Assembly (NCBI GenBank): GCA_020440865.1
Contig: JAGRNF010000008.1
Coordinates: 35,341-99,340 of the forward strand
Reading direction: 5' to 3'
Source of the DNA: Leptospiraceae bacterium
Lineage (GTDB): Bacteria; Spirochaetota; Leptospiria; Leptospirales; Leptospiraceae
DNA: 64,000 bases
Shown here: one piece after another, positions 5,596-52,933 of the stretch
Position numbering within the stretch: position 1 is the first letter of the stretch
Layout of the letters: each line of letters starts with the position of its first letter
Translations under genes and position numbers: made by a program
Notes under the pieces: generated by a model
What the model saw: the letters and a program-made list of their open reading frames with translations, nothing else
Told to the model about the DNA's origin: nothing
Database searches by the model: none

Positions 5596-6519
5596 TTGAG
5601 TACTGCAGATACATCTGAAAAACTATCCAGATTGTCCTCACCTGATCTGGATGAGGTTCTGGGATTGCCGTTTCGGGTACTGGATGATGGTTTCATTCGG
5701 GTAATTGATTATATGGGCACAGACGAAGCTATAGTTCAGGCCGCCAGAGTTTCCTATGGAAAGGGAACCAAGAAAGTCAATGAAGACAGAGGACTGATTC
5801 GCTACCTACTCCGCCACAAGCACACAACTCCTTTTGAAATGTGTGAAATCAAATTGCATGTTCGCGTTCCCATGGACACCTGGAGACAATGGATCCGACA
5901 TAGAACAGCAAATGTGAATGAATACAGTACAAGATATTCAGTGGCAATCGATTCTTCTCAAAAAACTTCCCCCTCAGAATGGAGAAAACAATCTTCAGAC
6001 AACAAACAGGGAAGTTCCGGATTTTTCTCTCCTGAAGATGGAAAACTACTGACTGACCAGGAAAAAGAATTCCACAATCTTTCACAAAAAATTTACAACG
6101 AACGAATAGAAAAGGGAATCGCCAGAGAACAGGCAAGAAAAGATCTTCCCCTTTCCACATACACAGAAGCCTACTGGAAAGTTGACCTTCACAACCTCCT
6201 GCATTTTCTTGCTCTGAGAATGGACTCCCACGCTCAACTAGAAATCCGACAGTACGCCAGAACAATTGGTGAAGAAATTGTAAAGCGTTGGTGTCCTATC
6301 GCATGGGAAGCCTTTCAGGACTATGTTGTACATAGCTCCAGCCTTACCCGTATGGAAATGGAAATTCTCAAAGAAATCACTTCGGGAAATACTGAATCCG
6401 CCATTCAAAAAGCAATCGGTTTCGGAATGTTAAATTCTGATCGATCTGTAAAGAAAAATCGGGAACGGGAAGAACTTGAGGAAAAGCTAAAAGACCTAAA
6501 TTTAAATATTCCCTGGTAA
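5596..6519 (+). CDS. thyX: FAD-dependent thymidylate synthase ThyX
   Basis: ThyX RHR-x7-S motif (RHRTANVNEYS). TTG start with AAAGGAGAGA ribosome-binding site upstream. Confidence 0.85.
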   Translation: MSTADTSEKLSRLSSPDLDEVLGLPFRVLDDGFIRVIDYMGTDEAIVQAARVSYGKGTKKVNEDRGLIRYLLRHKHTTPFEMCEIKLHVRVPMDTWRQWIRHRTANVNEYSTRYSVAIDSSQKTSPSEWRKQSSDNKQGSSGFFSPEDGKLLTDQEKEFHNLSQKIYNERIEKGIAREQARKDLPLSTYTEAYWKVDLHNLLHFLALRMDSHAQLEIRQYARTIGEEIVKRWCPIAWEAFQDYVVHSSSLTRMEMEILKEITSGNTESAIQKAIGFGMLNSDRSVKKNREREELEEKLKDLNLNIPW

Positions 6520-6530
6520 GAATGTACTAA

Positions 6531-6622
6531 TTCTCATAAATAATTACAGATTTCCTATTTGGGTATGTAGCCATTTTATAGCTGAGTTCTTTATGAAAGT
6601 GAAAATATTTTTGATATTGACT
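6531..6622 (-). repeat. copy D of the ~95-bp interspersed repeat family (minus orientation)
   Basis: Plus-strand tcataaataattacagatttcctatttgggtatgtagccattttatagctgagttc...ttgatattgact aligns with copy C (49288-49380) at about 65-70% identity. The TATAAAATGGCTAC core is on the minus strand. Confidence 0.7.
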
Positions 6623-6629
6623 TTAAGTA

Positions 6630-6697
6630 ACTCACCTTATGCACTTCATGCGAAAGGTGAGTAGATTTCCGTGGATCCGTCGACAGAATGGGAAATC
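6630..6697. terminator. tandem hairpins between convergent thyX and hydrolase genes
   Basis: ACTCACCTT (6630-6638) pairs with AAGGTGAGT (6654-6662). GATTTCC (6664-6670) pairs with GGAAATC (6691-6697). A T-run, ttatttttatt, follows about 15 nt downstream. Possible bidirectional terminator; no canonical U-tract touches the stems. Confidence 0.35.
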
Positions 6698-6785
6698 ATC
6701 ATCTCCGAATCCTTATTTTTATTGATTTATAAGTAAAATATAATTTTGAATAAAAAAAAACCAACTTCAAGTTTTCTCAAAGCAT

Positions 6786-7601
6786 TTAAAATTCCAAATT
6801 TAAAAATTCCTTTCTTGCCTTCAGTGTATCACGAAAAGTGGAAAGATTATTGTGATACCCTCCTTTGACTTCAACATACCTAATTCTTTCAGACAACCTG
6901 CCGATTTCCCTTCCCATTTCCACAGGAATGATTTCATCACGATCTCCGTGTAAGATTAACGTATTACCACCATAACTATCGACATATTTTTTAGTCTCCA
7001 GGCGATATGACAGTATCACACCTGGGACAAAAGGAAAGTATTTCTTTGCGATAGCGGGAAAATCAGTGTAAGGTGTCTCTAATATTAATCTCTTTGTTTT
7101 TTTATGATTGGCAAGGTAGGCGGCAATCGCTGTTCCTATAGATCTTCCATAGGGAATGATTTCCTTACCCGGATATTTTTGAACTAAGTATTCATAGAGT
7201 TCCAATGCATCCGAATACAATAAGTCTTCATCCGGTTTTCCATCACTTTTTCCATAACTTCGATAATCGGTGATAAATAGATCCCAATGATTGGGGAGAA
7301 ATTCTCTGTACACATCTCCCCAGGAACGCAGACTTCCAGCATTTCCATGGAAATAGAGTATGATCCCCTTTGATTCCTGTGAATTGAAATATAAAGAATT
7401 GATTTTCGTCCCATCCTGCATAGCTAAAGTAATCTCTTCAAAGGGAGAATCATATTGAAAAGAATGCTCCGGAGGAAGTTTTTCGGGATAAAAAATCAGT
7501 GATTGTTCCAAAAATTTTAACAATTTCAAGATACCTCCGAATAAAATTAAAAAAAGAACTAGAGTAAAAAGATATTTTTTCATCGCAAAATGCTCAGGCA
7601 C
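6786..7601 (-). CDS. alpha/beta hydrolase
   Basis: GRSIG nucleophile elbow (G-x-S-x-G). HGNAGS-type oxyanion region. N-terminal transmembrane anchor. Confidence 0.7.
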   Translation of the reverse strand: MPEHFAMKKYLFTLVLFLILFGGILKLLKFLEQSLIFYPEKLPPEHSFQYDSPFEEITLAMQDGTKINSLYFNSQESKGIILYFHGNAGSLRSWGDVYREFLPNHWDLFITDYRSYGKSDGKPDEDLLYSDALELYEYLVQKYPGKEIIPYGRSIGTAIAAYLANHKKTKRLILETPYTDFPAIAKKYFPFVPGVILSYRLETKKYVDSYGGNTLILHGDRDEIIPVEMGREIGRLSERIRYVEVKGGYHNNLSTFRDTLKARKEFLNLEF

Positions 7602-26508: not shown

Positions 26509-26622
26509 AATTATCCTCTATTGAAAAGTACAGATTAGAATTTGATCAATTTCTCTAACCAGATTTATCAGTAGGATAAATTTATCGAATTTTTTTTTTC
26601 AATTTGTTTTTTCCGAATTTAT

Positions 26623-26716
26623 AGTCATTTTCAAAAGTATTTGCTCACTCACTGAAGAATCAGCTATAAATCGGCTACGTAATTTCAGAAGAAATAGGTA
26701 AGTATTTCGAAAACCA
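26623..26716 (+). repeat. copy A of the ~95-bp interspersed repeat family, forming the gyrB promoter region
   Basis: agtcattttcaaaagtatttgc TCACTCACTGAAGAATCAGC TATAAATCGGCTAC ...gaagaaataggtaagtatttcgaaaacc. -35-like TTGCTC, an 18-bp spacer, then TATAAA. Aligns with B, C and D. Confidence 0.75.
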
Positions 26717-26793
26717 TCATATGTCGGTTCATTGAGAATAATAAAGAGAAAACAGCTGAGTATTGGGAAATCACTTGCGTTCAAATAGCTATG

Positions 26794-28732
<1,939 letters not shown>

Positions 28733-28755
28733 ATTCGGGTTTTGGCAGTTTAGAT

Positions 28756-29334
28756 TCAGGGAAGTACTTTCTTTTCAATCAAGTCCAAAGTACTTGCAGA
28801 AAATCTTAAGAAATATTTCTTTTGGTTTTCTGATCCTCCATCCATAGAATAAATCCAAATCAAATCAACCTGAATTTCTCCATCCTTAATCTTCCAGTTC
28901 TTTTTATAATCTTGAATCAAAGTGGAATTGTAATTTAATTTTTCAGTAACTGATTGATGAACTGCTCGATTTAGTTCTATTCCGGTTATCCATTTGTATC
29001 CCGGGAAAAACTTTTCAAGGCTGGATTTCTCTACCCTATAGAGAGTCTCCATATACATAGATTCATGTGAATCTCCCTTTGTGTATCCAAAGTACACATA
29101 TTGGCCATCTTCATATATGATTTCCCAGATTCGTCCCAGGATTTTTTTTATCCTATTTTCCATTCTTTTCTGGAAAAAAAAATCAGGATCTACCAACTCT
29201 GAAGTATTGATATTTTTTCCATTTTTCACTTCAGAAACCATGTACTTTTTCGAACAAGAAATCAATGTCATAATCCAGAGGAGTGGTATAATTATAAAAT
29301 ATTTCATATTCATTTTTTGAAATCTTTCATTCAA
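28756..29334 (-). CDS. hypothetical lipoprotein
   Basis: Signal peptide with lipobox LISC. Confidence 0.45.
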   Translation of the reverse strand: MNERFQKMNMKYFIIIPLLWIMTLISCSKKYMVSEVKNGKNINTSELVDPDFFFQKRMENRIKKILGRIWEIIYEDGQYVYFGYTKGDSHESMYMETLYRVEKSSLEKFFPGYKWITGIELNRAVHQSVTEKLNYNSTLIQDYKKNWKIKDGEIQVDLIWIYSMDGGSENQKKYFLRFSASTLDLIEKKVLP

Positions 29335-29535
29335 ATTGCAATGAATTTTTATAGTATATTGAAGAGTCTATTTTATCGAGTTGATAATTATTAGTTCTCA
29401 GATAAAATTTAATTTTTCAATTTACAAAATTTATTCTTTTTATTACTGATTCACTACTGCAAATGTAGATCTTTTTGAAAATTAATAGAGGTTTTTATTC
29501 ACTCAAATTTTTATTTTATTTGTTTTTCAGCTTAC

Positions 29536-29625
29536 AGTCACTTTCAAAAGTATTTGCGTATTCACAAAAGAATTATTTATAAAATGGCTACATTGCAAAA
29601 TATGAAAAGTATATATATTTAAGAG
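29536..29625 (+). repeat. copy B of the ~95-bp interspersed repeat family, forming the ruvC promoter region
   Basis: agtcactttcaaaagtatttgc GTATTCACAAAAGAATTATT TATAAAATGGCTACATTGC. Same TTGC-N18-TATAAA layout as A. The 3' part is more diverged. Confidence 0.7.
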
Positions 29626-29661
29626 AATTTGTATAACAATAATAATGAAAAAAGAGAAGTT

Positions 29662-30165
29662 ATGAATCAATCAAAACATTCCAGAATCATAGGAATAGAT
29701 CCGGGATCACATCGCATTGGTTTTGCGATTTTAGAGAAAAATGTATCTAAAAAAATACAAATCCTAAAGTACGGTACAATTGAAATTCCTCCCAAAACTG
29801 AGTTTGGCGAAGCAATGATTCAACTCAGGAAAGAATTGATTTCTCTTGTTGATGACTTCAAACCCCAGCTAGCTAGCGTTGAAGACTTATTCTTTAGTAA
29901 AAATGTAAAAACAGCAGCAAAAGTTTTTCAATCCAGAGGTGTGATTTTACTTACTCTTGCAGAGAGAGCGATCCCGATTCTTGAACCTACTGTGAGTCAA
30001 ATAAAGAAAGGTGTCACAACCTCAGGAAAAGCGGATAAGAATCAAATAAAATCATCTTTAAAACTTCTACTTCAAATTGAAGATCTCAAGGGATTGGATG
30101 ATTCATGGGATGCTGTGGCCTGTGCCTTTGTGGGATTTTCGATGCAGGGATCTAAATTATTTTAA
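29662..30165 (+). CDS. ruvC: crossover junction endodeoxyribonuclease RuvC
   Basis: [17 protein letters not shown]-terminal RNase-H-fold motif with catalytic Asp. The ORF track starts at 29629 (MYNNNN...). The ATG at 29662 ([15 protein letters not shown]) is more plausible. Confidence 0.8.
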
Positions 30166-30218
30166 TGCTTATGGTATTATTATACATTTATTATATTCGA
30201 TTTTAATAATACGATCAA

Positions 30219-30656
30219 TTAAAAAACTTTAATTAGAGACAAAAGTTTTTTTCTTGTTGTTTCATCTTTTTCTCTTTCCGTGATACAGATTAAATTTTCC
30301 TTCCCATCTAGATGATTTTTCTTACTTTCAACAACTTTTGGAATAATGATATTTGTATCCAAATCCAATCTAATTTTTGAAATTCGATTTTTGGAATATT
30401 TATTTATATTTTGAATCAATAAATTGGATACAAACTGAAGTTCCATCTTATAAGCTGAATTATAAACACCTATGTACAATGTATCACGAATAATTTTCTT
30501 TGGCTTAGAAAATTTATAAAACTCCAAACCAACTATATCTTTCCAGTGATCGGATATCGCACGAAATTCTACCTCAGATTTTAATTTCTCAAAATCTATC
30601 TCTAATTTACTTAATAAACTAGAAAAATCATCAGATTCCATATCAAACGAATTCAT
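30219..30656 (-). CDS. DUF721 (DciA-like) protein
   Basis: 145 aa directly downstream of recF with overlapping stop and start. DUF721 proteins conventionally occupy this position. Confidence 0.55.
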   Translation of the reverse strand: MNSFDMESDDFSSLLSKLEIDFEKLKSEVEFRAISDHWKDIVGLEFYKFSKPKKIIRDTLYIGVYNSAYKMELQFVSNLLIQNINKYSKNRISKIRLDLDTNIIIPKVVESKKNHLDGKENLICITEREKDETTRKKLLSLIKVF

Positions 30657-31752
30657 AATGATTCTCCTTTACCTTACCCTTATTAATTTCAAATATAGAA
30701 ATCTGGTTTCGGAAGTTTTTTAAAAAATCATCCAGACCGTCTAAATCAGTAGTTGTAAAAAAAGATTGTCCGCTTTCCATTAACAATTCCAGAAAGTAAT
30801 TTCTCCTTTTTATATCCAATTCTCGTATGACATCATCAATCAAAAGCACAGGTGTTTGATTTCTTATTTTTTTTATGTGTTTAAATTGAGCTGTTTTCAT
30901 GGCTATCACAGAACTTCTTTTTTGTCCCTGGGATCCAAATTCAGTAATATCTTTAGAATCTTTACCAATGAATAAATTGTCCCTATGAGGTCCGACTGTT
31001 GTATATCCCAATTTTAAATCCAGATGTTTTCGCTTTTGTAATTTATCCCTAAAGGATTCTTCTGAATTTACATTAGGATTGTATATGATTTCAAAAATAT
31101 CTTTCTCACCGCTTAGTATTTTGAGATTTTCCCTATAAATTTCATTGAGAGAGGCAATCACCCCGATTCTCTCTGAAATAAGAAAAATTCCTTTTTCCAC
31201 CAAAAGATTGTCCCAGGTAACCAGTTCAACTTCAGATTTAGCTTGTGATTTCAATAAAGCATTTCTATGTTTTAGTATTTTATTATATTCCAATAAATTG
31301 ATTAAATATTCACGGTTATAGATCGAAAGGAACGAATCTATAAACTTTCTCCTTTCCGCAGGACCTCCATCGATAATTTTTAAATCTATAGGGGATAGAG
31401 TAATTGTTATGAAATTTCCTATAAAATCTAATTTTCGGTTTATTTCTTTCTCGTTAAGTTTGATTTTCTTTTTCTTGGTGCCTAATTTTGTAAAGCCTAT
31501 CTCGAATTCGTCTACATCATCAGCATTCTGAATCTCTGCTTTGAGGTAATACGTATCCTTATCCCAGTTAAGTATTTCATCATCTGTATTGTCCCGAAAA
31601 CTTTTCAATGTAGAAAACATTTGAATCGCTTCCAGGAGATTTGTCTTACCTTCTCCATTCTCACCAATGAAAAAATTTAATCTGGAATTAAACTTTAATT
31701 GCACAGACTCATAATTTCTAAATGAATTGATGAGAATAGAGTTTATCTTCAT
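30643..31752 (-). CDS. recF: DNA replication and repair protein RecF
   Basis: Walker A GENGEGKTNLLEA. SMC-like signature. Overlaps dnaN by 4 bp. Confidence 0.85.
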   Translation of the reverse strand: MKINSILINSFRNYESVQLKFNSRLNFFIGENGEGKTNLLEAIQMFSTLKSFRDNTDDEILNWDKDTYYLKAEIQNADDVDEFEIGFTKLGTKKKKIKLNEKEINRKLDFIGNFITITLSPIDLKIIDGGPAERRKFIDSFLSIYNREYLINLLEYNKILKHRNALLKSQAKSEVELVTWDNLLVEKGIFLISERIGVIASLNEIYRENLKILSGEKDIFEIIYNPNVNSEESFRDKLQKRKHLDLKLGYTTVGPHRDNLFIGKDSKDITEFGSQGQKRSSVIAMKTAQFKHIKKIRNQTPVLLIDDVIRELDIKRRNYFLELLMESGQSFFTTTDLDGLDDFLKNFRNQISIFEINKGKVKENHYEFV

Positions 31753-32870
31753 AATTTCATTGGCATAACAACTGAAATATATTGTGGATCTGATGGATCT
31801 TTAAAGACAACCGGTGCATTAGAATTATTGAATTCAATTATGATTTCTTGATCTTCTATAGATTTTACTATATCTAATAAAAAATCACCTTTGAAAGCAA
31901 TAGTAGTATCTTCACCTGAATAATCCACAGGAATATTGATGTTTGCCTCAGTAGTCCCCGGAGTTGACGCATTGATATGTAAGTTATTATCATTGAATCT
32001 TAATCTTAATTGTCTGGATGGTTCTTCTGCAGCTATCAGAGCCTGACGTAGAGCTACCAAGAATTTATCTTTTGGCATCTTGATATTATTATGAGTTTCT
32101 TTGGGAATTACAGCTTCGTAGTCAGGATAATTTCCATCTATCAATTTACATAATAACTCAATCTCATTAATTTTAATATAGATTTGGTTATCAATTAAAC
32201 CTATTCTTCCTGATTCATTATGATCTATTATTTTTAAAATCTCTTTTATAGCCTTGTGAGGAATAATCACACCATTTTGAAACGGTAAGTTATTAGTAAA
32301 TTCTCTTTCTACTCTAGCTAATCTTCTACCATCTGTTCCAACTACAACTATTTTGTTTTCAAAGCTTTTGACATACAGTCCATTAAAAACAAACCTGGTG
32401 TCTTCTAGAGCAACAGAAAAAGATGTTTTCTTAATCATACTGGAGAGTGTATTACACTGAAATCCTGATGTTCTTGAATCATCTATCGTAGAGATCGTTT
32501 TGATTTCTTCTCCTCCGATTCCATTGATCATCATTTTGAAATCAACCTTGTTTTCAGCATCGGTGATTATAGTCTTAGCTGAATTTTCACCTTCATTCAC
32601 ATTTTCTAATGATGTTTCACTGAAATTAATTGCTTTCAAAATATTGCTCAACTGCTTAGCGGGAATGGATCCACTTCCAACAACATGAGTATTTGATGCT
32701 ATAGATGTTTTAATAGAGATTTCCAAATCTGTAGCTGAAATAGAAACTCTGTTTTCCTCAGCCTCCAGTTTCAAATTAGAGAGGACAGATTTTATTTCTC
32801 TAACAGTGATTACCCCTTCTACTGCAGAAATAGCTTTTTGAAAATCTCCAGTTTTGACATGGAACTTCAT
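31749..32870 (-). CDS. dnaN: DNA polymerase III beta sliding clamp
   Basis: 373 aa with the three-domain beta-clamp pattern (MKFHVKTGDFQKAI... N-terminus); operonic with recF. Confidence 0.85.
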   Translation of the reverse strand: MKFHVKTGDFQKAISAVEGVITVREIKSVLSNLKLEAEENRVSISATDLEISIKTSIASNTHVVGSGSIPAKQLSNILKAINFSETSLENVNEGENSAKTIITDAENKVDFKMMINGIGGEEIKTISTIDDSRTSGFQCNTLSSMIKKTSFSVALEDTRFVFNGLYVKSFENKIVVVGTDGRRLARVEREFTNNLPFQNGVIIPHKAIKEILKIIDHNESGRIGLIDNQIYIKINEIELLCKLIDGNYPDYEAVIPKETHNNIKMPKDKFLVALRQALIAAEEPSRQLRLRFNDNNLHINASTPGTTEANINIPVDYSGEDTTIAFKGDFLLDIVKSIEDQEIIIEFNNSNAPVVFKDPSDPQYISVVMPMKL

Positions 32871-32927
32871 AGCAAAACTCCTTATATATTTAATTTAACT
32901 TTCTTATATAGTAATAATAATTAGCGG

Positions 32928-32936
32928 TGTGTATAA
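32928..32936 (-). promoter_or_regulatory. DnaA-box-like 9-mer upstream of dnaN
   Basis: Plus-strand TGTGTATAA equals TTATACACA on the minus strand and fits TTATNCACA. It lies 58 bp upstream of the dnaN start. Confidence 0.35.
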
Positions 32937-32979
32937 GTAACTAACCCCAAGAAACTACATTTTTTTATAGAAAATATGC

Positions 32980-33067
32980 GACATATTTTTTGAAAATAAC
33001 TTTTTCAATAAACGACATAATTCGTAATCAGTATTATGTCTAAGAGACAATAAATCTTAATTATGTC
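32980..33067. repeat. four GACATAAT-type 8-mers (two per orientation) in the dnaN/pgk divergent region
   Basis: GACATATT 32980-87 sits inside the palindrome AAATATGcgaCATATTT. GACATAAT is at 33014-21. ATTATGTC is at 33033-40 and at 33060-67. Sites 2 and 3 form GACATAAT-N11-ATTATGTC. Confidence 0.45.
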
Positions 33068-33442
33068 CTATTAACACTTTGTTCACTAGAAATTTACCTA
33101 TTACAATACTTGTTTACGGACTTATTTACAGGTAAATAAAATATAACTGATATTTTCCTCTAAAATCTCTCTGAATTCTATAGGAATTAATTTAGGAAAA
33201 TCTAATGATTCTAAAAAATTATAGATTATCTGTAATATTTTTTAAGATTCAATTCACCGATATTTTTGTTTTTTTTGTCTTGTACTTAGATTCATTTTTC
33301 ATTTACTAAAATTTGAACCCGAGTTTAGAGTAATTGCTTTTCTTTTTTAGGTCATTTTTTTTACTTTGAAAGAAGAAATTTCATAACTTTTCTTATCAGA
33401 AGAAAAATAATTATTTCGAATCTTAAGGAGGATGGGAATAGG

Positions 33443-34711
33443 ATGTCCATTTCAAAAAAAACGATAAAAGATATAGATGTAAGCGGCAAAAGAGTTTTGA
33501 TGAGGGTTGATTTCAACGTACCTATAAAAAATGGAGTGATTCAGGATGATACCAGAATCAAAGCTGCTCTACCTTCGATTCAATACTTATTAGACAATGG
33601 AGCGAAATCCATAGTTTTGATGTCACATTTAGGAGATCCCAAAAAAGATTCTAAAAAAAATAAAGAGAAAGCTGAAAAATCCGGCAAAGAATTTGATGAA
33701 GCATCTTATATTGATGGTCATCATCGATTGGCCCCTATCGGATCCCATCTTTCCGGTTTGTTGAAAAAACCGGTCGAAGTTACCAAAAGTTGCATCGGGG
33801 AAGAGATAGCTCAGCTTGTAAATAATTCCTCTAATGGAGCGATTATTTTACTCGAAAATACTAGATTCCATAAGGAAGAAACTTCTAAGGAAGCGTCAGA
33901 ACGGGAAACACTAGCAAAAGAATTGATCAAATATGGTGAAGTGTATGTTAATGACGCTTTCGGAACCGCACACCGTGCACACGCTTCCACAGAAACTGTA
34001 GCCAAATATCTTCCTGCAGTAGCCGGGTTTCTAATGGAAAAAGAATTAGAATTCCTGGAAGAAAAAATTGTTAAATCACCTGCTAAACCATTTGTAGCAA
34101 TTGTTGGAGGAGCGAAAGTTTCTTCAAAAATTACAGTTATTGAAAAATTATTAGAAAAAGTCGATCGTATTATCATTGGAGGAGGAATGGCGTTTACTTT
34201 TCTCAAATCTATGGGAAAAGAAATTGGTGGTTCCCTCTGTGAAGATGATCAACTGGATGTCGCAAAGACTACATTAGAAAAAGCTAAAGAAAAAAATGTC
34301 GAATTCATTCTTCAAACTGATGCTATAGTTGCTTCCGAGTTTTCTAATGATGCAGAAACAAAAACTGTCGATATAGATAGTATCCCTTCTAACATGATGG
34401 GTTTGGACATCGGACCAAAATCTATTGAACTATTCAAAAAAGCTCTCTCCGATGCAAAGACTATTTTTTGGAATGGACCTGTAGGAGTATTCGAATTAGA
34501 GAAATTTTCAAGAGGTACTATAGAAATTGCTAATACGCTAGCAGGTGCATCCGGTGCTATCACTGTGATTGGTGGTGGGGATTCAGTTTCAGCTGTGAAC
34601 AAAGCAGGTGTTGCCGATAAAATGTCCCATATTTCTACCGGAGGAGGAGCATCTATGGAATTAGTTGAAGGTAAAGTTCTTCCGGGTGTTGCGGCTCTTA
34701 ACGACAAATAA
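33443..34711 (+). CDS. pgk: phosphoglycerate kinase
   Basis: The PGK signature regions run through the protein. A Lys/Glu-rich insert of about 25 aa sits near residues 68-95. TAAGGAGG ribosome-binding site. Confidence 0.9.
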   Translation: MSISKKTIKDIDVSGKRVLMRVDFNVPIKNGVIQDDTRIKAALPSIQYLLDNGAKSIVLMSHLGDPKKDSKKNKEKAEKSGKEFDEASYIDGHHRLAPIGSHLSGLLKKPVEVTKSCIGEEIAQLVNNSSNGAIILLENTRFHKEETSKEASERETLAKELIKYGEVYVNDAFGTAHRAHASTETVAKYLPAVAGFLMEKELEFLEEKIVKSPAKPFVAIVGGAKVSSKITVIEKLLEKVDRIIIGGGMAFTFLKSMGKEIGGSLCEDDQLDVAKTTLEKAKEKNVEFILQTDAIVASEFSNDAETKTVDIDSIPSNMMGLDIGPKSIELFKKALSDAKTIFWNGPVGVFELEKFSRGTIEIANTLAGASGAITVIGGGDSVSAVNKAGVADKMSHISTGGGASMELVEGKVLPGVAALNDK

Positions 34712-47047: not shown

Positions 47048-47953
47048 TTAAGGAGTGACAGAAATTACTTCGTCTCTATTCACCATGTCTACAATGTGTT
47101 TGTATTCTACAGAACCTTTGCCATACTTCAGCTCAGTTGCTCTAAGAAGGTGAACGTTTTTCTTGTTCTTGAGTTTTTGTACTTGGTCATCGCTACCGGC
47201 TTTGTATTTTTTCAAAGTGTTTTCTTCGAAAGAATAGCAGCTAGCCAGGTATTTATGAGCAGGGTACTCTTTTTCGTTAAGATCAAGCTCGAGGTAAAGC
47301 TCTATGATAGGAATACACTGAGGATAATTCTGTGTATCATATTCAGCCATAATCCATGCTCTGTAAACAGAAGAAAGAAGTGTTTTGTATGCTTTCTCTT
47401 CTCTGAGGTCAGGATTTTTTATTTCATCGAGGTGATTGATCGCTTTAGTGAAATAAGTAACTGCAGCTAATTTAGCAGCCATTTTTTCACGTTGAATATA
47501 TCTTTCTTCGTTAGCTTTTCTATCGATTTTTTGCCAGTACCATTTTTCATCAAGACGCTTCTTTTCAGATTGCTCTTTTCTGTATTGCTCGATGTTTTCT
47601 CTCATCTTGAGAATAGTGTTCATACCAGACTGGTAAGCGGAAAGTGCAAGTCTGTATTTATTGTTAGCAAAAGCTTTGGAAAGTTTGTGTAAATCCTCGA
47701 ATGCTTTGTTGTAACCAGCAAAGTCGGGGTTCTTCCACATAGCTTCTTGCTTAATGATTTCTTTCTTTCTTGCTTTTTCTTCATCGGAAAGATTAGCATC
47801 ATCATCCGGAACAAGCTCGCCCTTAATGGTAACTTCTTCTTCACTATTTGCTGCAGCTTTGTCTGGTTGTCCTGCAGGAGCTGGATCCTGAGCATATAGA
47901 ATACCAAAGTTGATCAGCACTAAGAGAATGACTAGTCTATTGAAAATCTTCAT
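47048..47953 (-). CDS. hypothetical secreted/lipoprotein
   Basis: 301 aa with a signal peptide and an alpha-helical, coiled-coil-like, Lys/Glu-rich body. Confidence 0.45.
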
Positions 47954-49287
47954 CTTGTTATACCTTTAACTCTCTTTCAATATTTAAGACAGACTTATAA
48001 ATAAATCTATCCCGTAATTAATATCGGAAATGCCCTATGCAAGGTCAATCCAATAAATAATATTTTTTTAGAATGTGTACTTTTTTTTAATGAGACATAG
48101 TAAAAATATGGGAAAATATTGAGTTTTTTACTAAAAAATCTAATTTAAATTCTTTTCAATCAGATTGATTTTGTGCTTAAACTCCATTATTTCTTTAAAA
48201 TCTTCATGCTTCTGGTACAAACCTTCATTAGGCTTCTATTCTGTTGATAGGCAAGTATTCTATCTAAAATTGAGAAAAAATGAAGAAATTTATTTTTTCG
48301 GAATGTATCTTTTTTTTAAAATCACGACCCATTTGAAAATTTTTTAGATGTATGCACATATAGATAAGATGGTTTAAATAAAAAACAGAATGAATTTCGG
48401 TTTTTCAAAAGATCAAAAAGAAAATAATTCCAAACGGTTTGTTCAATTCATTCAAAAGTTTCTATTTGATATCCTTATTTCTTATAATTCAAATCCAGTA
48501 GCCTTTTAAATTTTCATTTTATTTCTATGCCTGTAATAGAGTGAGGTTTGGGGAAGGGTCGCTGAACTGTTCTTCTGGACCTTCCGGTTGTCTGTGAATT
48601 TCAGTTTTAGCAATTGTATTCTTAAAACTTATTGAGAGCGGGTGGAACAATCTTTTTAACACCATTCAGGTTTCATTTTAAACAGGAGAGATTTCTTCAG
48701 AATGCAAAGTCCTACTTCATCGGAAAAAATAGGATTCAAGCATTTCCATCTACTTTAGATTATTTTTCTAAGTATTGATAGTTATCCTTTTTTCTAAAAA
48801 TTCCTTCCTTCCCAATTCAGTTTCTCTCTTTTTAGCAAAATATGAATTCCTCAGTACTACCTCAAAATGGATATAGGGTGTCTTCTAAGTCGATGTACTC
48901 ATATTTTCCTTTCTGCTTTTGTAAACTAATGAAGCAATTCAATTCATCCATATTTATTTTCAAGCACTCAAAAATGAAACTTGGGTTCTTATCTGAAATC
49001 CTATTGTATTTTTCTTTAAAAGATTCGGTTACGAAATCAAGGGTCTAAAGTTTCCAATCAAAGTAGTCTCCGGTTTGGAGTGGGTGGGTTGCGTACTATT
49101 TTCTAGCTATACATCAACTTTGAATTGAATATGCAATTTGTATCTTTCTAAAGTAATCTATTATCAAGACTCCTGGAATTTTTTGTTTTTCATCACTCAG
49201 CTCCTAAAAATCCATAGAATGAAATATTTTTTGGATGTTCGGAAAGTAAAGTTCGAATGAAAGAGTGGATTTGAGTTTCTTCTATAC

Positions 49288-49380
49288 CGGTTTTCATAAA
49301 TACTTACGTATTTCTTCGTAAGGTTTGTAGCCGTTTTATAGATGATTCTTCTGTGAATGCGCAAACCTTCTGAAAATGAC
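49288..49380 (-). repeat. copy C of the ~95-bp interspersed repeat family (orphan, in non-coding gap)
   Basis: Minus strand: agtcattttcagaaggtttgcGCATTCACAGAAGAATCATCTATAAAACGGCTAC aaaccttacgaagaaatacgtaagtatttatgaaaacc. About 80% identical to copy A over about 95 bp, including the downstream leader. Confidence 0.75.
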
Positions 49381-50129
49381 TATAAATAAAAATTTTCATC
49401 TCCCTGAAAAATCATAAGATCTATTCCATCAGTCACGAATGCTTGATCTCTTCTATTATTGCAATTTGGGAATTGGTGTTTAATTTTTTTGAATTGTATC
49501 CTCTTTGTGATTTGAGGAAAATTATTTCCTCTTCTTTATTTAATGAGCAAAGATCTCTTCTGTGTTTACTCTAAAATCTTAGTTCAAGGTCAGAATGGCT
49601 GATGAAACCTAATTAGAGGCTAGGATATTTGTTCTACTAGAGAAAAGTCCTAATGCCCCTTTGCAATGAATTAGTAACTCATCCTACGCAGTATTTTATT
49701 TTTCAAATTTTTTTTAGTTTAAAATCAAAATCATTTTTTGCTAATAAATCAATAAAAATATGGGTTTAGGCGATAGCCCAAGCTGTCCGCAGGCTCCCTG
49801 CAACCTCACATTTCACTTCTTTGCGTAATGTGAGTTAGTAAACTATTTGCTGAAATTTTCGTTTCTCCGTTGATATGAGAATACCCAAAATTTGGAAAAT
49901 TTTGATATTTCGGCCTGTAGTACCCACAGGGTAGATTTTCAAGATTTTCTCTTTTTGGGGCCTTTCTCTGGAGATGGAATCTTTACTAAGAACATAAGTT
50001 TCTATTTTAAATAGAGTGAAACATAAGACTATTTCTTCCGGATGTTTCAAATCTATCAGGTTCTTTAAAATAACTCATTGGAAATTTCAAGTTCTACCGA
50101 AATTAAAAATAAAACGGTGGTGACCAGCA

Positions 50130-50450
50130 ATGCCCAAAAATACTCCAGCCAATGCAAAGGGAAAACAGGTATCCAAGAAGAGAGTTGCCCAAAAATCCAA
50201 AGTTAAGAAAAAACCACAAACAGTATCTGCTAAGAAAAAGACTATCGGGCAGGGTCTTGTGAATGTGATGTTGGATACCAAAAAAATCAAGATTCAAAAC
50301 GTTGAAGTCTCCAAGCAAGCATTCGAAAATTTAGCTATTTTTGCCTCCAACCTCAAACCTGCTATGACAATTGAACAAGCGATATCCAGTTTGCTCGAAC
50401 AGGGGTTTAACCCCAAATTCAATCCTAAAAAAATTCCACTCCTTCCGTAA
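50130..50450 (+). CDS. small lysine-rich basic protein (possible nucleoid-associated protein)
   Basis: 106 aa. The N-terminal 45 residues are a Lys/Ala/Pro-rich tail (KGKQVSKKRVAQKSKVKKKPQTVSAKKK), followed by a globular C-terminal half. GGTGGTGA ribosome-binding site. Sits just upstream of rsmG. Confidence 0.45.
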   Translation: MPKNTPANAKGKQVSKKRVAQKSKVKKKPQTVSAKKKTIGQGLVNVMLDTKKIKIQNVEVSKQAFENLAIFASNLKPAMTIEQAISSLLEQGFNPKFNPKKIPLLP

Positions 50451-50538
50451 TATATACGACATAATATGTTTCACGTGAAACGCATTGTGTCGTCTTCAAG
50501 CTATTCTCTTTTTAAACTTAACTTACCAAGGTAGAACT

Positions 50539-51267
50539 ATGCTCACTGTTAAATATGAATTCATTTCCCGTTTTCCCGGTCTTAGCGAAGAATCCCAAAA
50601 AGAGGAATTTTGGATTCACCTCCAAAATTTTTATGAATTTTTAATTCTAAAAAATCATGAAGGTGGGTTCTTTTCTAAATCCGATTCAGATTTAATTTTA
50701 GAAAGACATATCATGGATTCCTATTTCTTTGCTGCTAAGGTTCTGGATGTTCTTCGTGTTTCACGTGAAACAGAATTCGCGGATGTAGGAACTGGACCCG
50801 GATTGCCCGGATATCTATTTTTCTTAATAGGAAAGTTTAAGAGTGTTTCCTTTATCGATTCTCAGAAGAGAAAAATGAAACATCTGGAAGAGTTTGCTAG
50901 AAATCAGAAATTACCCGGTGAACCTAGGTTTATCTATGACAGAGCAGAGAATGTAAAAAAGAAATTCGATCTTGTGAGTATGAGAGCTGCTATCCCATAT
51001 CCGTGGTCGGTGGAAGTTTGCTCTGGTTTGGTCAAACAGGGTGGATGCTTTGTTCCATATTTAGGAAAATTGAAAAATCTAGATCGTATAGAAGGTGAAA
51101 TTTTAGAAAGAATGGGATTTGATAAGCAGAGTGAATTTTCGATTCCTGAATTGAATTTTTTGGGGGAACGAAATGTAAAAGTCTTGAAAAAGAGAGTTCA
51201 GAAAGAGACAGGTAAAGCTAGACTTTGGAAAGTCATTCAAAAGGAGATTCGGGAATACAATGGGTAA
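50539..51267 (+). CDS. rsmG: 16S rRNA (guanine527-N7)-methyltransferase RsmG (GidB)
   Basis: SAM-binding VGTGPGLPG. Conserved context upstream of parA. The ORF track starts at 50485. The ATG at 50539 (MLTVKYEF) with an AAGG ribosome-binding site is more plausible. Confidence 0.8.
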
Positions 51268-52024
51268 AATTATTGCAATCAGTAATCAAAAAGGGGGCGT
51301 TGGGAAAACGACAACTTCTATAAATCTTTCCTCGAATCTCGCATCGATGGGGAAGAAAATTTTGGTAGTCGATATTGATCCTCAGGGCAATGCAGGTTCC
51401 GGTTTGGGAATCGATGTAAATCAAATTCAAAAAACAACCTATGAGGTTCTATTGAAGGAAATCTCAATAAGAGAATCAATCATCAAAACTGATTATGAAA
51501 ATTTATTTATACTCCCGGCAAATATCAATTTGAGTGGAGCTGAAATAGACCTGGCAAATGTAGAGAGAAAAGAATTTGCCCTTAAGGATGCTATTCAATC
51601 TATTAAAAATGATTTTGATTATGTTCTCATCGATTGTCCTCCATCTCTCGGACTTCTTACCTTGAATGCACTTTCCTCTGCTGATAGTGTCATAATAACT
51701 TTGCAGACAGAATACTTTGCCTTAGAGGGGCTAAGCCAACTGATGAAGATCATTTCCCTGGTTCAGGAGAATTTGAATTCCGGATTAGAGTTGGAGGGAG
51801 TTCTTCTTACAATGTATGATAAGAGGACTAATCTAGCCAACCAGGTTGCTTCAGATGTTAGACAGTACTTTCAGGAAAAAGTATTTGAAGCAATGATTCC
51901 CAGAAATATAAAACTGGGGGAAGCACCTTCGTTTGGAAAGCCTATCAATGTGTATGATACGGATGGAATAGGAGCTAAGAGTTACTTAGCTTTTGCAGAA
52001 GAGTTTATTAAAAAGAATCAGTAG
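51260..52024 (+). CDS. parA: chromosome partitioning ATPase ParA/Soj
   Basis: Deviant Walker A KGGVGKTT; 254 aa. Confidence 0.85.
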
Positions 52025-52033
52025 GAGAAAGGA

Positions 52034-52933
52034 ATGACAAAACCAAGTGTGTTGGGTAGGGGTCTGGGCAATCTCATACCGGGTGGAAATAAAAATACTT
52101 CTACTGGAATCTCGGATTCCGGATCAGGGGAAGTCAAAGATTCGAATTCTATAGAAATAAAAATATCAGAAATTCAAATGAATCCGAATCAACCCCGGAA
52201 AACTTTTTCAGCAGAAACCATTACAGAGATGGCTGAGACAATCAAAGTTCATGGATTGATACAGCCAATCATTGTGAAGAAAATCGAAAATGGTTATGAA
52301 CTGGTTGCAGGAGAGAGAAGGCTACGGGCCTGTAAGGAAGCAGGATACATTAAAATTCCCGCGATCATAAAGAACTATTCTGAGAAAGAATCAATAGAAA
52401 TTGCTCTACTGGAAAATATTCAAAGAGAAGATTTGAACCCAATTGAGCAGGCCATGGCTTACCAAACAATCTCAGAAAGATTGAATTTGAAAATTACTGA
52501 AGTGGCTACCAGACTAGGAAAGAATCGATCTACCATCGCTAATCTGATCAGACTTCTTCAACTCCCTGAAAGCGTAAAAAATTTAGTATCCTCAGGTAAG
52601 CTATCGGAAGGTCATGCCAGACCACTACTTACCATCGGAGATAAAAAGAAACTCGAAGAAGTAGCCGGAATGATCGTGGAAAAACAGATGACTGTTCGGC
52701 AAGTAGAGGATTATGTATCCGAATTAGTTGATGGCAAAAATCAGGAGAATAAAAAGATCCAAATCGATAAAGATCCATCCATCCTTGATCTAGAAGGAAA
52801 AATTAGAAATAAATTTTCGATCAAAGCTATGGTTCAGCACAATTCTAAAACTGGAAAAGGAAAGATTTCTTTGAGTTATAATGATATGGATGAATTGGAA
52901 AGGTTGATGGAAAAGATGGGAATAAAGATTTAA
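52034..52933 (+). CDS. parB: chromosome partitioning protein ParB/Spo0J
   Basis: ParB box GERRLRA; HTH; C-terminal dimerisation region. Confidence 0.85.
   Translation: MTKPSVLGRGLGNLIPGGNKNTSTGISDSGSGEVKDSNSIEIKISEIQMNPNQPRKTFSAETITEMAETIKVHGLIQPIIVKKIENGYELVAGERRLRACKEAGYIKIPAIIKNYSEKESIEIALLENIQREDLNPIEQAMAYQTISERLNLKITEVATRLGKNRSTIANLIRLLQLPESVKNLVSSGKLSEGHARPLLTIGDKKKLEEVAGMIVEKQMTVRQVEDYVSELVDGKNQENKKIQIDKDPSILDLEGKIRNKFSIKAMVQHNSKTGKGKISLSYNDMDELERLMEKMGIKI

Follow-up and report, generated by a model that had tools for sequence, protein, structure and literature searches.

Probable relics of two MITE-like repeat families in the thyX–hydrolase spacer of an uncultured Leptospiraceae bacterium

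Correia elements (CREE/NEMIS) of Neisseria are ~100–155 bp long, insert at TA with duplication of this target and lie in intergenic DNA in either orientation; promoter-like boxes may arrive with them, neighbouring transcripts can be affected, and they carry good 26-bp TIRs, hairpins that are cleaved by RNase III and an IHF site. The repeat family described here, F1, one copy of which (copy D) lies between the convergent genes thyX and an alpha/beta-hydrolase gene of a Leptospiraceae bacterium, is likewise TA-duplicating and intergenic, but is devoid of a stable fold and belongs to another host phylum; the two are likened by description and no homology is claimed.

Bacterial MITEs are defined operationally as small, non-coding, multi-copy sequences with TIRs and a TSD, and in the survey that uses this definition no other bacterial order was as rich in MITEs as the Leptospirales, which had a median of 154 per genome (PMC11602168). 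F1 resembles bacterial MITEs (PMC11602168) in its length of ~99 bp, in being non-coding and intergenic, in its tens of copies with a TIR and a TSD and without a transposase of their own, and in the way in which these copies are nested and clustered in repeat islands. It differs from them in a TIR that is unusually imperfect (53–72%), in a centre that is conserved above the 3′ terminus, in that no partner IS was found in ~216 kb, and in its occurrence, with the patterns used, in one species-level genome only.

A further comparison is offered by the 'putative mobile promoters', conserved blocks of 50–100 nt that precede non-homologous genes (Matus-Garcia et al., 2012; PMC3488235), among which families with tens of copies were suggested to be non-autonomous mobile elements (PMC3488235). 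F1 also forms a block upstream of non-homologous genes (gyrB, ruvC and fcpA), but while putative mobile promoters are defined by their position upstream of coding sequences, half of the F1 copies, including copy D, are not upstream of a gene in the sense orientation, and promoter activity of F1 is unsupported by a consensus scan. REP and REPIN sequences are, like F1, short, intergenic and multi-copy and are often located between convergent genes, and the hairpin of a second repeat adjacent to copy D, F2′, resembles them; F1, on the other hand, has no hairpin, no RAYT-type gene was seen, and F1 duplicates TA, whereas REPINs make no such duplication. F1 is not a member of the Correia elements or of the putative mobile promoters, although it is functionally similar to or overlaps with them, and it is neither a REP/REPIN nor an RNA family.

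Copy D and the thyX–hydrolase spacer

The stretch of DNA that was analysed, referred to here as the window, comprises 64,000 nt of a Leptospiraceae bacterium (contig JAGRNF010000008.1, positions 35,341–99,340). It probably derives, as judged by sequence, from the genome of the Leptospiraceae MAG HK-STAS-SPIR-4 or of a near-identical sister; the second repeat family of the window is 92–95% identical to copies in this MAG. Its relevant features are as follows.

5596–6519, plus strand: thyX, FAD-dependent thymidylate synthase (Pfam Thy1, PF02511, E = 1.5e-52)
6525–6623, minus strand: F1 copy D, probable decayed TA-targeting MITE of ~99 bp (leave-window-out profile; ends from nested insertions and end alignment)
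6567–6596, minus strand: F1 core as it stands in copy D, the best-conserved central part of the element, TCATAAAGAACTCAGCTATAAAATGGCTAC, including the −10-like TATAAAAT (exact core-pattern match)
6628–6756, plus strand: truncated F2′ copy, starting with the terminal motif TAACTCACCTTATGCA, far-end TIR missing (alignment to L020, L008 and L018; TIR motif matches)
6630–6662, unstranded: hairpin 1, stem of 9 + 4 bp, formed by the F2′ terminal motif and its adjacent inverted copy (fold)
6664–6697, unstranded: hairpin 2, 7-bp stem GATTTCC/GGAAATC and 20-nt loop containing GGATCCGTCGAC (fold)
6786–7601, minus strand: alpha/beta-hydrolase gene, convergent with thyX (Pfam Abhydrolase_1, PF00561, and Hydrolase_4, PF12146)
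26618–26724, plus strand: F1 copy A, sense, 95 nt upstream of gyrB in the divergent yebC–gyrB spacer (nhmmer; GyrB and YebC domains)
29531–29636, plus strand: F1 copy B, sense, directly upstream of ruvC; the most diverged window copy (nhmmer)
49279–49386, minus strand: F1 copy C, better preserved than the other window copies, in an island of repeats without ORFs (2.5 kb) that lies upstream of fcpA (nhmmer)
49675–49837, plus strand: full-length F2 MITE of 163 bp, TA-flanked, with 16-nt TIRs (TAACTCAYHTTACGCA) and GC-rich internal palindromes (alignments; TIR motif matches)

The thyX gene ends in TAA (6517–6519) and encodes an intact ThyX of 307 aa, which is the normal length (homologues have 305–308 aa) and is 100% identical to the NCBI Leptospiraceae MAG proteins MCB1142459.1 and MCP5513055.1. 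The start of the hydrolase gene varies with the gene caller (6786–7523 or 6786–7583 in contigs L001–L003). The spacer between the two convergent genes measures 266 nt, of which ~230 nt are filled by two juxtaposed mobile-element relics, F1 copy D and F2′. An initial annotation of this region had placed copy D on the minus strand of the convergent spacer, 12 bp past the thyX stop; the strand and the convergent setting are as described, while the distance is 5 nt according to the TSD-defined ends. Copy D is flanked by TA at 6624–6625 and by a degenerate dinucleotide at 6523–6524, which reads CA on the element strand, giving a degenerate TSD of its own (TA/CA).

Within the window, copy D (6525–6630) aligns by BLAST with 29531–29633 in reverse orientation (75%, E = 1e-14), with 49291–49389 in the same orientation (74%, E = 2.5e-10) and with 26619–26707 in reverse orientation (73%, E = 4e-8). 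With a GC content of 30–40% in the window, and with window copies that are only 73–75% identical to each other, such alignments could be thought to reflect nothing other than chance similarity of AT-rich intergenic DNA. This reading is refuted by an independent profile built from 27 copies, all of them outside the window, which matches copy D at 6523–6626 with 65.3 bits (nhmmer, E = 2.7e-19), compared with a best score of 11.2 bits in 50 dinucleotide-shuffled windows (3.2 Mb), and by the 30-nt F1 core pattern, which has four exact matches in the window against 0.05 expected. The alignment on which the initial annotation had built does not, in other words, drop to the level of AT-rich background.

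The identical ThyX is present in several activated-sludge-type metagenome assemblies, in which the spacer is base-for-base that of the window. Comparison of related strains for presence or absence of the repeat, as proposed in the initial annotation for this spacer, revealed no F1 polymorphism: 20 strain-level contigs are colinear with the window wherever copies A, C and D lie, with 99.8–100% identity and no indels, so that these copies are fixed, which is not proof that the family is immobile. The nearest ThyX relatives (from other Leptospiraceae, P0031 and P0002) lack the F1 element, but their identity does not exceed 77% and synteny is lost downstream, so that they provide no orthologous empty site for copy D. 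Upstream of thyX in the window lies a divergent gene for a CsoR-type metal-sensing repressor (PF02583, 5268–5528). In L033, which encodes a 77%-identical ThyX relative, an H-NOX and hybrid histidine-kinase pair is located between the CsoR-type gene and thyX, and a short-chain dehydrogenase takes the place of the hydrolase downstream of thyX; the thyX neighbourhood is accordingly not conserved within the Leptospiraceae.

Ends, target site and spread of F1

In an end alignment, the conservation of F1 begins and ends sharply (tTA/TAGTCA...GGTA/TA, with slashes at the element boundaries), and head-to-tail F1 pairs have one TA in common, the junction GGTATATAGTCA being seen in L023 and again in L021. 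In L029, a single F1 copy, exactly 101 columns long, interrupts a complete F2 MITE, and three unsplit F2 paralogues read AGTT-TA(T/A)A-ATC at the point of insertion. In L022, an F1 copy lies within another F1 copy, the outer of which reads ...ACT-TA-[F1]-TA-TGAGAA, compared with ...ATT-TA-TGAGAA in the consensus; deleting the inner F1 plus one TA restores the outer sequence. These two nested cases, in which the empty sites are paralogous and not orthologous, indicate a TA target-site duplication and an element of the form 5′-TAGTCA...GGTA-3′ of ~99 bp.

The two ends of F1 form a TIR that is recognizable in register, where the first and last 29 nt have a mean identity of 0.53, compared with 0.28 ± 0.014 for shuffled sequences and 0.13–0.375 at other offsets. 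In subfamily 2, which includes copy D, the inverted repeat matches at 19 of 24 positions (p ~0.0005), while in subfamilies 1 and 3 the TIR is not significant when each is taken alone. This imperfect TIR spans 24–29 nt, where MITEs have at least 10–15 bp, but with an identity of 53–72% it is poor for a MITE. When a single-copy minimum-free-energy fold is mapped onto the alignment, only the arm complementarity expected of a TIR appears, with 88% of the cells of the arm helix paired. From one subfamily to another, a change in one arm is accompanied by its counterpart in the other (TTGCG/CGCAA to TTTAC/GTAAA and vice versa), as is expected of two transposon ends recognized by one transposase. At ~99 bp the element falls within the ~50–800 bp of MITEs and has no coding capacity, its only ORF-like frame (ATGGCTACA...) being broken; a small ORF at this position was considered and rejected, with stops or frameshifts in many copies and no ATG in copies A and C.

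Taken together, these sequence features make F1 a MITE in the operational sense given above, albeit one with an imperfect TIR. The initial annotation had proposed that the element is mobile and that it spreads or is retained independently of promoter function, and both suggestions are borne out, the former by the TA-duplicating insertional unit seen in the nested insertions, the sharp ends and the many copies, the latter by the same insertions together with the location and orientation of the copies. All F1 copies are intergenic and none lies inside an ORF, and among ~35 scorable copies 17 are in sense to the gene at which they point and 18 are tail-on or antisense (convergent); several lie 2–12 nt past a stop codon, as does copy D.

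The window contains four F1 copies (A, B, C and D), no more being found in it by the profile, which gives at least 40 matches in 19 8-kb loci of HK-STAS-SPIR-4. A scan with the core pattern, covering one genome per GTDB species, returned 23 stretches, 19 of which (with 21 exact matches) are in this single MAG; the remaining four belong to unrelated taxa and are taken as chance matches because they occur in no family profile match. Copies A to D of the window are not among the stretches returned. With the patterns used, the collections scanned gave no F1 family member in a further species: the JGI metagenomes yielded no further members and three pattern-level chance matches, IMG/VR yielded one F1 pattern match, on a contig that has the length (35,081 bp) of the Salinisphaera contig with a chance match in the genome scan and is taken to be that one, and none for F2, and the PLSDB plasmids gave no F1 match.

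Identity between F1 copies ranges from 59 to 100%, and the occurrence of identical copies at different loci points to recent transposition. Copy D is nearest to L019 (83.8% identity) and, with a best match of only 84%, is regarded as old; the best matches of copies A and B are at 80 and 77%, respectively. Copy C is 91.8% identical to L020 and scores 100 bits with the all-copy profile and 94.7 bits with the leave-window-out profile. These identities portray F1 as a family that has been active recently, though all window copies but C are old.

F1 would have been moved by a transposase supplied in trans. TA is the target and is duplicated on insertion, the behaviour looked for in an IS630/Tc1-mariner-type element, and this target suggests a transposase of that type, the autonomous partner IS of which would then be expected to end with TA followed by TAGTCATTTTC or ACTCATCTTACGCA. 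A search of ~216 kb (MAG loci and window) yielded neither an autonomous element nor a transposase whose ends match; an all-against-all comparison of the ORFs of the loci and the window revealed no high-identity multi-copy ORF save for a DUF1016-type pair, and the window ORFs sampled are housekeeping genes. The 5′ end of F1 (for example L014 339–350) and the ends of F2 (49675–49690) have TA followed by A(G/C)TCAT(T/C)TT in common, and one transposase may mobilize both families, the terminal match being too short for statistical security. Copy D would have been inserted 5 nt past the thyX stop codon, abutting the truncated F2′, and would now be functionally neutral 3′-UTR or spacer DNA; at most, the F2′ hairpins might help to end the convergent transcripts and the −10-like box might give weak antisense transcription.

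Hairpins, promoter-like boxes and the small-RNA reading

Two stem-loops beside copy D, at 6630–6662 and 6664–6697, had been noted in the initial annotation, and both are recovered at exactly these positions: the segment 6626–6700 folds into them with a dG of −15.6 kcal/mol (z = −4.6), and none of 200 shuffles is as good. They do not, on the other hand, constitute an independent local feature, as they belong to a second repeat family, F2′, which is present at three other, unrelated loci. The F2′ copy beside copy D (6628–6756) is 74% identical to L020 3141–3271 over 131 nt (E = 3e-15), and the family alignment has four members, those of the window, L020, L008 and L018; the copy in the window is considered truncated because it lacks the far TIR. 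In all four, TAACTCACCTTATGCA comes first and its inverted copy directly after it; the pair is hairpin 1, and this hairpin is kept in four of four members (86.5% of cells paired, seven of 13 pairs invariant). Hairpin 2 as drawn is peculiar to the copy beside D, with 57% of cells paired across F2′; the other members have a GGGGA...TCCCC hairpin in this region. The loop of hairpin 2 (6673–6684) contains adjacent BamHI and SalI sites (GGATCCGTCGAC) and is thereby polylinker-like; it is identical in five independent metagenome assemblies and is hence natural, the likeness to a polylinker probably being due to chance.

The terminal motif of F2′ is the one that forms the 16-nt TIRs of F2, to which F2′ is related. 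The full-length F2 of the window (49675–49837) is 92–95% identical to copies in L007, L010, L029 and L021, and F2 is present in at least five MAG loci at this level of identity. Since the TA flank of copy D is 2 nt from the F2′ terminus, one of the two elements was inserted at the edge of the other.

The favoured reading, which is probable, is that copy D is an aged and mutated member of a non-autonomous MITE family specific to the lineage, F1, that inserts at TA, and that the hairpins are a second MITE-like repeat. For the hairpins, the alternative is a bidirectional terminator for thyX and the hydrolase gene that evolved locally and is unrelated to any repeat. Their position between convergent genes, their strong stability (z = −4.6) and the lack of another terminator-like site in the spacer speak for it, but the recurrence of 6628–6756, as a member of F2′, at three unrelated loci refutes the clause 'unrelated to any repeat', hairpin 1 is the F2′ terminal palindrome, and no T-run follows either of the hairpins, whichever strand is read, so that this alternative is very unlikely. 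No intrinsic-terminator-like site was found in the spacer; a terminator role of the F2′ hairpins is nevertheless possible, and they may have been put to such use secondarily, after insertion. That F1 is a multi-copy small-RNA gene or a structured cis-regulatory RNA, as implied by the 'sRNA-like' label of the initial annotation, is suggested by its length of ~100 nt, its multiple conserved copies and a weak complementarity of the arms (88% of the cells of helix 1 paired, with some double changes), yet covariation of the arms is also what two ends under one transposase would show. RNAalifold predicts 0 consensus pairs over 35 F1 copies, and on neither strand is the fold of copy D or of a consensus-like copy more stable than those of shuffles (z from +0.6 to −0.7). 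Rfam finds nothing over the whole window at gathering scores, and a relaxed threshold over 6450–6850 returns only noise with E of at least 0.78; there is no terminator, and stops and frameshifts exclude a short ORF beginning ATGGCTACA. The sRNA label is thus not sustained, and an RNA-based identity of F1 is extremely improbable. No tRNA or tmRNA was found, and subterminal hairpins of the IS200/IS605 or REP type, sought in F1 by consensus and single-copy folding, were not present.

A different possibility is that F1 is a portable promoter or regulatory cassette, in which TTGCGC, at a spacing of 18 nt from TATAAAAT, and GGCTACAT would constitute an outward promoter/operator reading from copy A into gyrB, from copy B into ruvC and from copy D antisense over the 3′ end of thyX. 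Conservation peaks, also in old copies, at the columns of the −10-like TATAAAAT and its neighbour GGCTACAT; gyrB, ruvC and fcpA are the genes that copies A, B and C face; an internal direct repeat, CATTTTCA.AAG and CATTCACAGAAG, 21 nt apart, can be read from the sequence; and promoter-bearing MITEs are known (Correia and ERIC elements; also 'putative mobile promoters', PMC3488235). Against this, the −35 equivalent of the consensus (TTGCGC, 18 nt from the conserved −10-like box) agrees at only three of six positions and that of copy D (TTTCAC) at two of six, a simple sigma-70 scan finds no site in copy D and none that uses the TATAAAAT box in copies A or B, gyrB has a better sigma-70-like candidate downstream of copy A (26780–26808, TTCAAA-17-TATAAT, 10 of 12), and half of the F1 copies are directed into a convergent gene from its 3′ side. 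The premise of the initial annotation that a promoter might fire from copy D into thyX is weakened by the same −35 scores and by the empty scan of D, and the cassette reading as a whole is unlikely. Fits to the sigma-54, sigma-28 and IHF consensus sequences were sought in F1 by eye and rejected.

The F1 core columns are 86–95% conserved across copies, and in old copies conservation amounts to 86% in the core, 86% in the 5′ arm, 74% in the 3′ arm and 68% in the variable segment. The retention of the core and 5′ arm over the 3′ arm, a bias that neutral decay does not predict, is the sole hint of a retained function. On the basis of the centre CTATAAAATGGCTACAT and the 5′ arm (two direct CATT..CA.AAG repeats, 21 nt apart), which outlast the 3′ terminus in old copies, it is conceivable, though quite unlikely, that F1 was co-opted as a portable regulatory cassette with a promoter and one host-factor site, which would wire gyrB, ruvC and fcpA to a common response and produce a regulatory antisense RNA at thyX. 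If the core were an active promoter/operator, F1 would represent MITE-mediated rewiring of spirochaete housekeeping genes.

Repeat islands and the meaning of F1 and F2

The region upstream of the flagellar-coiling gene fcpA (47048–47953, minus strand, PF28277) is a 2.5-kb ORF-free repeat island (47953–50485), which holds F1 copy C and the complete F2; its remainder, the 1.3 kb from 47953 to 49279, lies outside both. L010 1555–3304 and L021 6665–8000 are intergenic and consist almost wholly of F1 and F2 copies. Nested or tandem loci (L029 5004–5272, L022 4816–5011, L023 6484–6690, L021 5644–5850 and L025 980–1185) show F1 in F2, F1 in F1, head-to-tail F1 copies sharing one TA and a head-to-head pair, and L024 2149–2278 is a chimera of the first 74 nt of F1 joined to an internal GC-rich part of F2, which is attributed to a deletion or recombination event that joined neighbouring elements. 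L009 2105–3014 is a tandem-repeat region that has no relation to either family; it carries internally repetitive ORFs on both strands, with tandem segments that are 60–87% identical.

Elsewhere in the window, the cumulative GC skew has its minimum at 32–34 kb, where gene orientation flips (32870–33443; context 26819–34711), dnaN (31749–32870) and recF (30643–31752) being on the minus strand and the plus strand carrying pgk and the genes after it. The interval 32870–33443 is a probable replication origin, with no dnaA beside dnaN. The gyrB gene (26819–28732, plus strand) is inverted relative to dnaN–recF, and rsmG–parA–parB occupy 50485–52933.

Seven short-read contigs from independent metagenomes end in or at the edge of F1 copies, three of them at 49372 (L038, L039 and L043), two at 26614 (L049 and L050) and two near 6583 (L005 and L006); short-read assemblies of the organism break at these copies because of the F1 and F2 repeats.

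MITEs as such are already known, and F1 and F2 are two families that had not previously been characterized; one of them, with its weak TIR and TA target, joins the other as an addition to a MITE-rich order, and the nested insertions are clean examples that define the F1 ends. F1 and F2 are ordinary repeat litter in the genome of an uncultured Leptospiraceae bacterium and not a dedicated promoter or small-RNA gene. They account for most of the thyX–hydrolase spacer and are also invoked for the 2.5-kb 'empty' region upstream of fcpA, and they are worth masking ahead of searches for promoters, small RNAs or terminators in this genome.
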